From a virus, in IMG/VR virus record IMGVR_UViG_3300001567_000262, positions 32,001-96,000 of that record: a stretch of 64,000 bases of DNA, one strand, 5' to 3'. A program made the translations under genes and the position numbers. Every line of letters starts with the position of its first letter. Position 1 is the stretch's first letter. The notes beneath the pieces were generated by a model. The model did no database searches. It saw only the letters and a program-made list of their open reading frames with translations, and was not told the origin of the DNA. Below, piece by piece: positions 21,422 through 23,379 of this stretch.

Positions 21422-22252
21422 TTATTTGTTTCCTAAAATACTATTCAGCTCTACCAGCGCTCTCACTCCCCATGATGCTCCATCTTCAATTTCATGGAAA
21501 CGCCAAATACCTTCCTTTAATTGCGTGGTTTCAATCCATTCGAGAGCCTTAATAAAAATATCCTTGTTTACCAAATTCATGTATTTAATGAGTCCGAGTA
21601 TAGCTATAGAGGTACAGAATATATCGGAACTGACTGGATGGTTTAACCAAGGTGCGAAGCCTCCGTCGCTTCTTTGATTTTGGACGAGCCATTCTACTGT
21701 GCGTTTAATAATATCTTCTCTTTTCGGCACATAAGAGTTATGTCCGAATGCCATTAATGTGTACCCAGCCTTATAAGAAATGGAATCTATCTCTGAAAAC
21801 CACAAATCCTCCAACAAAACGAGACCATCATAAGTGGCAAGGTCAGGGAAGATGGAAAACAAAGTCCCCGTAACGGGTATTCTTGACATGTCACGTTTGC
21901 TTCTGCCCCACAATCCAGTCACACTTTTTTGGTTCAATATATACTGCTTTGCAGAAGATATGATTCGTTCATGTTCATGTTTATTATATTGTTGAAGAAG
22001 ATATGTATTCCATATTGTATCTGGCACAGCAACCCATCCGCCATCTTCTCTTTGCTCATTAACACATCTTTCTATCAGGCTTTCAGGTATATTTCTTAAA
22101 GACAGACCAGAATCAATAAGCAAACATGCGGTCTTTGTTATTCTTGACAATTCGAGATTCTTATTCAACATTTCACGGATCATATTACTCAAGGATATTA
22201 TAGATTTCACAATTGTAGGTCTAAATATGTTTCCTCCCTCTTTGTTCATCAT
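21422..22252 (-). CDS. Prenyltransferase / squalene-cyclase repeat (alpha-alpha toroid) protein
   Basis: QW-type repeats QREDGGW, QKSVTGLW, QRSDGGF and QLKEGIW; ATGA overlap with the upstream gene. Confidence 0.75.
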   Translation of the reverse strand: MMNKEGGNIFRPTIVKSIISLSNMIREMLNKNLELSRITKTACLLIDSGLSLRNIPESLIERCVNEQREDGGWVAVPDTIWNTYLLQQYNKHEHERIISSAKQYILNQKSVTGLWGRSKRDMSRIPVTGTLFSIFPDLATYDGLVLLEDLWFSEIDSISYKAGYTLMAFGHNSYVPKREDIIKRTVEWLVQNQRSDGGFAPWLNHPVSSDIFCTSIAILGLIKYMNLVNKDIFIKALEWIETTQLKEGIWRFHEIEDGASWGVRALVELNSILGNK

Positions 22253-23379
22253 CTTAGTTTCTCCCAATGATGCGTTTTATCCTCGCTGAAGCCCATATCC
22301 CTATAAAACATACTCATGTGCCTGATGTTCTTGATTCCAGCAAGCCACATAGATAATCTTTCAACACCAATGCCGAAACAGCAAACAGGTACATTTTCTG
22401 ATGGCAGCAAATCGGCATACCAGCCAATTTGTTCTTCAAGTTTTAGTGTCTTTATTTTTTTTGCCATAAATGATTTTCTCGTGTCTCTCAAACAGCCCTC
22501 TGCAACCTCGCCAACTCCAGGAAGTAAAAGATTAAAGGAGTATTTTTCTTTTTCATTCTTTGAAAGAGCTGCCCATGATGATAATGGTGCGGGGAAATGT
22601 GTTACAAATATTGGCCCGCTACTAGCGATTTCCAATTCAAGCTTTCCTAAACCCTTATTTTCTATGCCGTATTCCTTTGCAATATCCCAATAATGTACTC
22701 TCCTGAAGTTTGTGCAATGATCTGTCTTTATTATTTCGGCTTTAAGGAGATTAGCCAGAATTATTTTTACAAAATCCTCCGTAAAGTCGAGAAATTCATT
22801 AAAACTTATTCCTGCGATACCGACTTCAAGCATATCGAACTCGGACAAGTGCTTAAATGTTTTTGATGCTTCAGCTCTAAACGACTTCTGTAATGAATAC
22901 ACTTTTCCGAGATTGGCCGCACAAATAGTAATATACAGAGCATTGCTTGATGAGAGCCTCGCATCAGAATTAAAGAAGTTTAATGAAAAATGATTCGCTT
23001 TTGTTTTGCCTTTATGTAATGTTGGCAATCGTAATTCTATAAATCCTTCTTCACAAAGGTAATTTCTTACAGCGCTTAAAACGTTTGAATATGTCTCGAT
23101 CTTGCTCAATGAAACTGTATTATGAAAGTATTCGCCTACGGATTCCACAGATATAAGTCTTTGAGCGATAATTTCATTCTCGTGATAAGATACATGACAC
23201 TTGATATAGTCGCCGATTTTAATGTCTTTTATATCTTCGTATTGAGGTTCAGTTAAAATGTCTTTTCTGAAAATAACATTAAAAGTGTCTCGGCCATACT
23301 TAATATCTACAAACACAATACCGCCATGTTTTCTTATCGATAGAACCCGCCCGAATATTTCATCATCTTTCTCAGACAT
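22249..23379 (-). CDS. Class IIb aminoacyl-tRNA synthetase paralogue (AsnRS / archaeal AspRS-like)
   Basis: OB-fold GRVLSIRKHGGIVFVDI, motif 1 GFIELRLP, motif 2 FRAEASKTFKHLSEFDMLE, motif 3 FGIGVERLSMWLAGIKNIR. Confidence 0.85.
   Translation of the reverse strand: MSEKDDEIFGRVLSIRKHGGIVFVDIKYGRDTFNVIFRKDILTEPQYEDIKDIKIGDYIKCHVSYHENEIIAQRLISVESVGEYFHNTVSLSKIETYSNVLSAVRNYLCEEGFIELRLPTLHKGKTKANHFSLNFFNSDARLSSSNALYITICAANLGKVYSLQKSFRAEASKTFKHLSEFDMLEVGIAGISFNEFLDFTEDFVKIILANLLKAEIIKTDHCTNFRRVHYWDIAKEYGIENKGLGKLELEIASSGPIFVTHFPAPLSSWAALSKNEKEKYSFNLLLPGVGEVAEGCLRDTRKSFMAKKIKTLKLEEQIGWYADLLPSENVPVCCFGIGVERLSMWLAGIKNIRHMSMFYRDMGFSEDKTHHWEKLR

Follow-up and report, generated by a model that had tools for sequence, protein, structure and literature searches.

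Paralogues of aminoacyl-tRNA synthetases that form amides without tRNA are known, such as AsnA and EpmA; the latter (EpmA/GenX, the EF-P beta-lysine ligase) works on a free amino acid, which it activates and then attaches to a protein Lys. We know of no synthetase paralogue that acts on the precursor of a peptide made on the ribosome and modified after translation (RiPP), nor of one derived from asparaginyl-tRNA synthetase (AsnRS) with a pocket rebuilt as described below. In the microcin C pathway MccB adenylates a C-terminal Asn, with a succinimide as first step, and GrcB forms a thiolactone (PMC12250964 and PMC8323819). Here we analyzed an AsnRS-like gene (22249..23379, minus strand) within a RiPP operon in a 64,000-nucleotide stretch of viral DNA, the window (positions 32,001 to 96,000 of IMG/VR record IMGVR_UViG_3300001567_000262), the source record being a 133-kb provirus that is 64% complete. 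A first-pass annotation had read this gene as either a tailoring ligase or a resistant copy of the target; the ligase is favored by the amino-acid pocket, the gene context and the Asn that ends the precursor, and the resistant copy is disfavored by replaced substrate contacts, a host without AsnRS, clade members without an OB-fold and the exchange of the gene in a related cluster. We give about an even chance to the view that a duplicate of an AsnRS gene entered an operon for peptide modification and there became an ATP-dependent tailoring enzyme for an N-blocked Asn or Asp unit; that it is a tailoring adenylase of some kind we consider likely, and that its substrate is the C-terminal Asn of the peptide we hold to be possible, if on balance doubtful.

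The gene encodes a 376-residue AsnRS-derived paralogue with a trimmed OB-fold (approximately residues 5–79) and a class IIb catalytic domain in which the ATP site is intact and the amino-acid pocket rebuilt. Its reading frame starts with the ATG at 23379, an alternative upstream ATG at 23385 giving 378 residues; it overlaps the stop of an upstream amidohydrolase-GNAT gene by 8 nt and meets the next gene in an ATGA junction, so the coupling to its neighbors described in the first-pass annotation holds, and the once proposed "full" OB-fold plus class IIb architecture stands for both domains by Pfam and fold match, the OB-fold being trimmed (short L45 loop and hinge) rather than full. Pfam matched PF00152 at 134 bits (E-value 5.8e-39, residues 90–359), and the OB-fold PF01336 marginally (residues 8–61; 28.5 bits, the cut-off being 27). 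The protein missed the NCBIfam cut-offs of the canonical AsnRS profiles TIGR00457 and PRK03932 (140.6 vs 342.6 and 142.7 vs 414 bits), of non-discriminating and bacterial aspartyl-tRNA synthetase (AspRS; 110.7 vs 353 bits), of AsnA and AsnRS2 (AS-AR; 24–75 bits vs 309–389, the best being 75.4 vs 368) and of EpmA/GenX (48–54 bits vs 264–287, the best being 54.1 vs 264). An AlphaFold2 model built from a 48-row alignment (pLDDT 91.4) had full-length AsnRS structures in all of its top 10 matches (Z 34–36, rmsd 2.7–3.4 Å over ~360 residues), followed by archaeal-type AspRS (Z up to 34), AS-AR (28.7) and EpmA (28.0). The top match in the ESM Atlas was a 62-member PF00152 cluster, which may be the family's own, and PHROGs gave one family with no function assigned there; PADLOC returned zero matches for the AsnRS-like, amidohydrolase-GNAT and barrel proteins of the operon. 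A complex prediction of the enzyme with ATP/Mg and the precursor scored 0.02, below the mark of 0.32 for an interpretable answer.

A protein search with 3868 candidates was reduced to 87 proteins, among them the query and 48 relatives with E-values of 4e-44 or less and 32–46% identity, below which the matches fell to 1e-29 and then to canonical synthetases; identity to AsnRS was 21–29%, and a further search added more distant clade members. The named members are from scattered anaerobes (Pseudodesulfovibrio aespoeensis, Desulfamplus magnetovallimortis, Heliomicrobium gestii, Desulfitobacteriaceae and Aminicenantes), and their database labels, "asparaginyl-tRNA synthetase" or "phenylalanyl-tRNA synthetase class IIc", need correcting. 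In a tree of the catalytic domain, 58 of 108 rows formed one clade (SH-aLRT 99), and in a 43-row bootstrap tree the 16 chosen paralogues were a clade with 100/100 support, on a stem of 0.52, nested inside AsnRS and apart from AspRS, short asparagine-synthetase-like rows and lysyl-tRNA synthetase (LysRS)/EpmA; outgroup labels were assigned by motif rules and E. coli references, with no curation, and E. coli AsnA was aligned and left out of the trees. AsnRS is the ancestor from which the paralogue descends, and the phylogeny proposed as a check in the first-pass annotation, run with AsnRS, AspRS, short asparagine-synthetase-like and LysRS/EpmA rows, places it in a long-stemmed clade of its own and not with housekeeping AsnRS. 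Members fall into three sizes: 407–414 residues with a full OB-fold, a core of 365–390 residues with a trimmed one, and 290–311 residues with none. The AsnRS-derived proteins without OB-fold (P0105, P0108, P0109, P0110 and P0116, 290–311 residues) have the same new pocket motifs; one such cluster has 22 members, and one member occurs on 83 contigs.

Residue counts were made over 56 clade members of at least 345 residues and 88 AsnRS, the latter chosen by a motif holding Q213 and E217, which makes the counts for these two residues, and for no others, partly circular. Within the ATP site R168, E170, H177, E180 and E291 were each present in 56/56 members and R341 in 55/56. Judging from the motifs, these would be equivalent to residues that bind phosphate, adenine and Mg in human AsnRS (PMC10831071) and Plasmodium AspRS (bioRxiv 10.1101/2025.03.20.644283). 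Motifs 2 and 3 had been noted earlier as retained, and their Arg residues and the Mg-binding Glu are indeed invariant or nearly so over the 56 members. Such retention, together with a new active-site acid fixed in 55/56 (Glu294), speaks against a subunit that only senses or has no catalysis, which would bind ATP or tRNA and scaffold or regulate the neighboring enzymes in the manner of HisZ. We find this explanation very improbable, even though the gene is optional in the cluster and one record has the protein fused to the barrel enzyme encoded downstream (P0018), a single fusion that may have arisen from a sequencing error where the genes overlap.

Two positions that we take to be the Asn side-chain readers, by analogy with T. 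thermophilus E225 and R368, were kept (E185 in 56/56, R/K298 in 54/56). The remainder of the pocket differs. The flipping loop is two residues shorter in the clade, with EG[GAST] in 0/56 members vs 83/88 AsnRS, an acid at the flipping-loop Glu position in 6/56 vs 87/88, and K/R two places further on in 43/56 vs 0/88. In Plasmodium AspRS the equivalent Glu binds the alpha-amino group of the substrate (E352; bioRxiv 10.1101/2025.03.20.644283), and in human AsnRS it binds the Asn moiety (E279; PMC10831071). In E. coli AsnRS numbering, Q213 is replaced by A/S, E253 by A/S/G/T, K364 by A/S/G, F366 by W (56/56), D381 by N (53/56) and G392 by E (55/56), and Y367 is lost; the canonical Gln of the QSxQ segment, the second Glu, the Phe-Tyr pair and the first Gly occur in 0/56 members each. 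Trp269, Asn283 and a Lys in the shortened loop are newly fixed, like Glu294, and a combined six-position signature was found in 54/56 clade members and 0/88 AsnRS. Of AspRS features, position 150 (the Lys of QLxKQ) is hydrophobic or Ser in the clade and position 185, where AspRS has its motif-2 Asp, is Glu, and the clade lies outside the AspRS branches. Over the catalytic domain, identity averages 44.4% in the clade and 41.2% in AsnRS; as this domain is as conserved as in AsnRS, the enzyme is not decaying. The segments LSSSNALY, LSSW and VAEGCLR were present and aligned where the first-pass annotation had placed them, and its description of the pocket as degenerate was rejected, these being conserved, family-specific replacements: by its residues the pocket is rebuilt, not decayed.

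The OB domain is less conserved (mean identity 24.9% in the clade vs 29.4% in AsnRS) and shorter, with a median L45 loop of 11 vs 18 residues and a hinge of 20 vs 30. At the anticodon-contact positions, which we assume to correspond to E. coli AspRS R28, F35, Q46 and E93, R/K, F, Q and D/E were found in 48, 47, 4 and 41 of the 56 members, vs 80, 85, 81 and 85 of the 88 AsnRS. These counts bear on a tRNA-dependent ligase, in which the trimmed OB-fold binds tRNA and an adenylated peptide C-terminus is extended from aminoacyl-tRNA, after the model of peptide aminoacyl-tRNA ligases (PEARLs) and on a class II fold. Three of its four contact positions are mostly kept (41–48/56), and the early-branching P0099, with a full OB-fold, shares an equal-sized longest contig with a precursor (chance 0.01); the anticodon Gln (4/56), the shortened L45 loop and hinge, the members without OB-fold and the lack of tRNA genes in the window and in seven cluster loci make it an improbable account.

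The housekeeping asnS/aspS check suggested in the first-pass annotation was run in three genomes, G482, G1171 and G142, and the paralogue was not the only class IIb copy; these host genomes come without a completeness figure, and absence from them means "not found". G482 has AspRS, LysRS and GatB beside the paralogue (its gene gives P0034, named H. gestii), and a canonical AsnRS was not found there; its relatives likewise lack AsnRS and have GatB, and 8 of the 9 genomes of its family had zero matches to the family profile at 1e-30. G1171 carries the paralogue and a canonical AsnRS (58% identical to that of E. coli), and a canonical AsnRS is also present in G142. As G482 has no AsnRS and G1171 has one, the paralogue is neither a housekeeping enzyme nor tied to an AsnRS target. 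The 133-kb source record contains one PF00152 match, the AsnRS-like gene itself. A self-resistance copy, a working and inhibitor-insensitive AsnRS supplying Asn-tRNA while the product blocks the housekeeping enzyme, has precedents in AbmK, AgnB2 and the asnS of mcc-like clusters (PMC8323819), and would agree with the complete two-domain architecture and with the pairing in G1171. It is very unlikely here: at least seven positions that are 91–100% fixed in AsnRS are replaced (E171, Q213, E253, K364, F366, Y367, D381, G392), NCBIfam asnS scores were 141–143 bits vs 343–414, G482 with its AspRS, LysRS and GatB has no AsnRS to protect, 8/9 of its family lack the paralogue, and G142 has the cluster and a canonical AsnRS with no paralogue.

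Conservation next to homologous SPASM clusters, which the first-pass annotation had made a test of its idea, was borne out by the gene order and by a contig proxy. An amidohydrolase gene lies directly upstream of the AsnRS-like gene in 5/5 loci (L075–L078 and L175), and a barrel gene directly downstream, together with a B12 radical SAM gene, in 4/5; L078 ends inside the AsnRS-like gene, and L148 from the same sample carries its tail and two downstream genes. The SPASM, PqqD and precursor genes were visible in L075 and L175, the loci long enough to show them. Taking an equal-sized longest contig as a proxy for co-location, 13 of the 48 relatives paired with one of 119 barrel homologs (chance mean 0.29) and four with a precursor (chance 0.16), vs 0/38 pairs with a barrel homolog for the lower-ranked matches, mostly canonical synthetases. 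The barrel is commoner than the AsnRS-like gene (220 vs 49 matches).

The related cluster of G142 has the same precursor, a SPASM enzyme with 47% identity, an amidohydrolase, a barrel protein (50%) and a B12 enzyme, and between amidohydrolase and barrel, in the slot of the AsnRS-like gene, a class I methyltransferase; the AsnRS-like paralogue was not found in this locus or genome. The best NCBIfam match of the methyltransferase was to the carboxyl methyltransferase BioC (56.6 bits vs a cut-off of 185), and N- and C-methyltransferase models gave 39 bits. In this variant (L165:6795-17908) a stand-alone amidohydrolase and the methyltransferase replace the amidohydrolase-GNAT and AsnRS-like genes, and there are also an LVIVD-repeat protein, a membrane-anchored helical-repeat-like protein and a second radical SAM enzyme. 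In L077 an amidohydrolase without GNAT, of the G142 type (43% vs 28–31% identity), precedes the AsnRS-like gene, and therefore the swap maps to the AsnRS-like gene. The latter is a module that can be exchanged, and not every cluster has it, a point missed by the first-pass annotation. The G142 swap, L077 and a third genome, G212, are one case each. In G212 (L166:6588-10298) an AsnB-type amidotransferase and a glycosyltransferase come after a distant barrel homolog; this genome was rejected as a member of the cluster type, no precursor being found in it, and the contig ends at this point.

The precursor peptide (24722..24844, minus strand, 40 residues) has an acidic leader with YxxP and WEEF and a core ending in WCFGCTNCNCN; it does end in Asn, as first described, and had zero Pfam or NCBIfam model matches. 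A set of 81 distinct sequences, from which two long unrelated proteins were dropped to leave 79, was collected by a word-sharing search, which is biased towards conserved ends. The WCFGC(T/S)NCNCN terminus was present in 78 of the 79, the remaining one carrying four extra residues, and the core, which contains no Asp or Glu, is nearly invariant over 11 residues across Bacillota, Desulfobacterota and Aminicenantes records. A lone precursor with the same core occurs on a phage-like contig (L157:2143-2325; guanine-plus-cytosine (GC) content 0.65) with no maturase genes in 9.7 kb, and is possibly a decoy or captured. A 450-residue low-GC protein follows the precursor in L175 (10998-12377), L078 (1-1107) and L165 (13560-14906) and is absent from the window and L075; the L165 copy has an N-terminal membrane segment and zero Pfam matches.

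The points that we count for a tailoring adenylase are clade support, ATP-site retention, the pocket signature, context, the precursor Asn, the slot swap and the members without OB-fold. With the ATP site intact, the side-chain reader kept and the alpha-amino site lost, we infer an Asn- or Asp-like substrate with an acylated amine, and favor the last residue of the precursor because it is the simplest such substrate in the operon. The enzyme would adenylate the carboxylate of an Asn or Asp unit whose amino group is already acylated, the likeliest being the C-terminal Asn of a leader-removed or thioether-cross-linked peptide; the acyl-adenylate would be captured by a nucleophile other than tRNA, such as the Asn side-chain amide (giving a succinimide), a core Cys thiol or an external amine, leaving the C-terminus capped or cyclised. 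In G142, the one genome with the swap, methylation by the methyltransferase would serve to cap or activate this carboxylate. We tentatively suggest, while thinking it doubtful, that a class II synthetase fold serves here as a RiPP maturase that adenylates a C-terminal Asn in convergence with MccB, that adenylation and carboxyl methylation are interchangeable, and that these clusters form an undescribed, phylum-spanning RiPP class.

The lost alpha-amino site would also fit an inverted or N-acetylated substrate, as in an AsnA-like side-chain or N-acyl-amino-acid ligase acting on another carboxylate, with ammonia or an amine of the peptide as partner in the amide or isopeptide bond. That carboxylate could belong to a peptide Asp or Glu side chain, to an Asp that the amidohydrolase generates out of Asn or to a small N-acyl amino acid produced by the GNAT; in 5/5 loci the amidohydrolase gene lies upstream. 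AsnA activates a beta-carboxyl by few substitutions on the same fold (PMC3532385), and the distant barrel homolog of G212 adjoins an AsnB-type amidotransferase. Yet the clade lies outside the short AS-AR-like branches, AsnA models gave 24–75 bits vs 309–389, the Lys that binds the carboxylate side chain in AspRS and AsnA is hydrophobic or Ser (position 150), the amidohydrolase of L077 has no fused GNAT and the precursor core has no Asp or Glu; we regard such a ligase as unlikely.

An Amidohydrolase_2-GNAT fusion (23372..24586, minus strand, 404 residues; HxH, KEH, H, H and D positions kept in five aligned copies) next to an AsnRS-like gene also raises the possibility of a non-translational immunity function, modelled on MccF, MccE and asnS of microcin C-like clusters, in which amidohydrolase, GNAT and AsnRS-like protein cleave, acetylate, and then bind or degrade a toxic Asn- or Asp-like product. 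In mcc-like clusters, GNAT, peptidase and asnS genes have an established or proposed part in immunity (PMC8323819); the cassette is optional, and an acetylated product would likewise have no free alpha-amine. This we judge quite unlikely, as ThiF/MccB is found neither in the record nor in the G482 and G142 operons, leaving nothing else to make a mimic of an aminoacyl-nucleotide, none of the three complete operons read has an evident exporter, the AsnRS-like gene is coupled to the barrel enzyme and once fused to it, and the whole catalytic ATP/Mg set is retained.

Several points weigh against a tailoring adenylase. Binding of tRNA would be compatible with the OB-fold, in which three of four anticodon-contact positions are mostly kept and conservation is only modestly lower. 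The cluster exists without the AsnRS-like gene in G142, the step being optional, as immunity genes often are, and G142 differs in other genes too (the LVIVD-repeat protein and the second radical SAM enzyme); the methyltransferase matches are far below cut-off (BioC 56.6 vs 185 bits; N- and C-methyltransferase models 39). It may be for the SPASM enzyme that the C-terminal Asn stays invariant (thioethers between Cys and Asn are known). The precursor search by words shared with the query favors conserved ends, and circularity affects in part the AsnRS counts for Gln213 and Glu217. The members without OB-fold gave 0/22 matches with the equal-sized-longest-contig proxy. Finally, the set of GNAT, hydrolase and synthetase resembles the immunity genes of microcin C (PMC8323819).

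The other genes of the operon are also on the minus strand. A SPASM maturase (25179..26249, 356 residues; PF04055 and PF13186) is 47–48% identical to the G482 and G142 copies and scored 164.7 bits against TIGR04303 (cut-off 400); a PqqD-type RiPP recognition element (24867..25175, 102 residues; PF05402, E-value 1.5e-10) lies between it and the precursor, and with maturase, recognition element and small conserved precursor in one operon the locus is a RiPP cluster. Zero NCBIfam models reached cut-off among the best 25 of 76 to indicate the type of cross-link, and a link to arsenic RiPPs was rejected, matches to the ArsL, ArsN1 and ArsM profiles being weak and far below cut-off. The gap between precursor and tailoring genes contains a stem-loop (24590..24721, minus strand; minimum free energy -46.8 kcal/mol, z -3.64, 0/200 shuffles as stable), which probably stabilises the precursor mRNA or attenuates read-through.

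Downstream of the AsnRS-like gene, the barrel protein (21422..22252, 276 residues) is a single-domain alpha/alpha-barrel with the fold of squalene-hopene cyclases and class II terpene cyclases (Z 25.4 to 1gsz, 24.2 to MstE 6sbb and 18.7 to GGTase-I beta). Its consensus has no DxDD motif, and invariant basic residues with H204, C212, H252 and D256 could, by their nature, bind diphosphate and metal. The last four residues of the precursor have Cys fourth from the end, a likeness to CaaX motifs. In P0018, from a single Aminicenantes record, AsnRS-like and barrel proteins form a 653-residue fusion, either real or a sequencing artefact of the overlapping genes. The B12-binding radical SAM enzyme (20107..21419) is one gene that lies in three successive frames of the window, broken up by two assembly errors of one base each, near 20685 and 20775. 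The comparison data were two reassemblies of a possible source sample and, from another study, a related strain, with seven contigs covering nearly all of 20089–26266; the related-strain contigs were 95–99% (one) and 90–95% (six) alike to the window. The two extra bases are absent in X1, X2 and X5, and the idea of a pseudogene was rejected, the splitting bases being assembly errors. A read run, X7 (probably DNA), covers only four 151-base pieces.

The GC content of the operon is 38.8% vs 56.2% in the prophage genes to its left; positions 1–19600 of the window are the end of a first prophage-like unit, and the 133-kb record C1 contains tandem related prophage-like units (~1–51 kb and 100–133 kb) with matching structural genes and low-GC cargo between them. 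Divergent from the operon is an RtcR-like CARF-AAA sigma-54 activator (26547–28313) that could regulate it. RtcR responds to damaged RNA or tRNA ends, and no such activator was found beside the G482 or G142 clusters. The window operon is in prophage cargo near this activator and BREX-like genes, and in G482 the whole operon has cas3 on one side and cas1 on the other, as an insertion in a type I CRISPR-cas locus (L175:619-6325 and 14129-17117); based on these sites the product may act in anti-phage defence.

A scan of genome contigs identified at least 74 loci, and of those listed no long match exceeded 31% identity; one of metagenome contigs identified at least four family loci and one fragment among the 80 best. 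Viral scans gave zero family loci and the one orphan precursor, and plasmid searches canonical synthetases or nothing. Genome samples had a new cluster in 0/88, 0/5 and 0/272, and a match in 2/401, 1/9, 1/112 and 1/399 (one genome of the last unscored). Among cultured isolates the operon is in Heliomicrobium gestii and the enzyme also in Pseudodesulfovibrio aespoeensis, making direct testing possible. We found no description of the cluster or clade in the open-access literature at the level of listings and the opening lines of abstracts, and tables of radical-SAM RiPP mining atlases beyond this scope could list the cluster. If the enzyme adenylates the peptide C-terminus, it would be a new type of maturase and a clean case of a translation enzyme changing its substrate, the tree keeping the intermediates (full, trimmed and no OB-fold), and it might serve, as engineered MccB does, to activate peptides at their C-terminus.

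The cluster is apparently undescribed; its AsnRS-like protein falls outside AsnRS, AspRS, AsnA/AS-AR and EpmA, and the cluster outside the mcc clusters. Its maturase is best matched by the GeoRSP and ACGX radical SAM/SPASM profiles (TIGR04303 and TIGR04340), with which it shares SPASM, PqqD, a Cys-containing precursor and anaerobic hosts, although the scores (165 and 145 vs a cut-off of 400) are low and the precursor matches no model. Like EpmA/GenX, the AsnRS-like protein is a class IIb paralogue proposed to modify a polypeptide; EpmA/GenX is LysRS-derived, however, and an outgroup in our trees. AsnA and archaeal AsnRS2 (AS-AR) are class IIb paralogues as well, and adenylate a carboxylate to form an amide without tRNA (PMC3532385), but they are on separate branches, have no OB-fold, unlike most of this clade, and match the model at Z 28 vs 36 for AsnRS. 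The resistance synthetases AbmK, AgnB2 and mcc-like asnS are likewise synthetase homologs in biosynthetic clusters, and still charge tRNA (AgnB2; PMC8323819), whereas in this clade the amino-acid pocket has been rebuilt and an AsnRS is missing from one host. Zero ThiF (PF00899) matches in the 133-kb record, a 64%-complete provirus, agree with the first-pass view that MccB/ThiF is missing and that this is not a standard microcin C cluster, and the ThiF genes of G142 and G482 are outside their clusters. With MccB and GrcB the clade would share adenylation of a C-terminal carboxylate and a strict C-terminal Asn; the fold is unrelated, and here a 40-residue Cys-rich precursor with a separate PqqD takes the place of a heptapeptide, with SPASM and B12 radical SAM enzymes, no exporter evident and an optional gene. 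To AsnRS, the ancestor of the clade, the paralogue is closest in its two-domain fold (Z 34–36), ATP site and side-chain Glu and Arg/Lys, and it differs in the replaced flipping-loop Glu, Gln, second Glu, Lys-x-Phe-Tyr, Asp and Gly, in its shorter OB loop and hinge, and in its place in RiPP operons.

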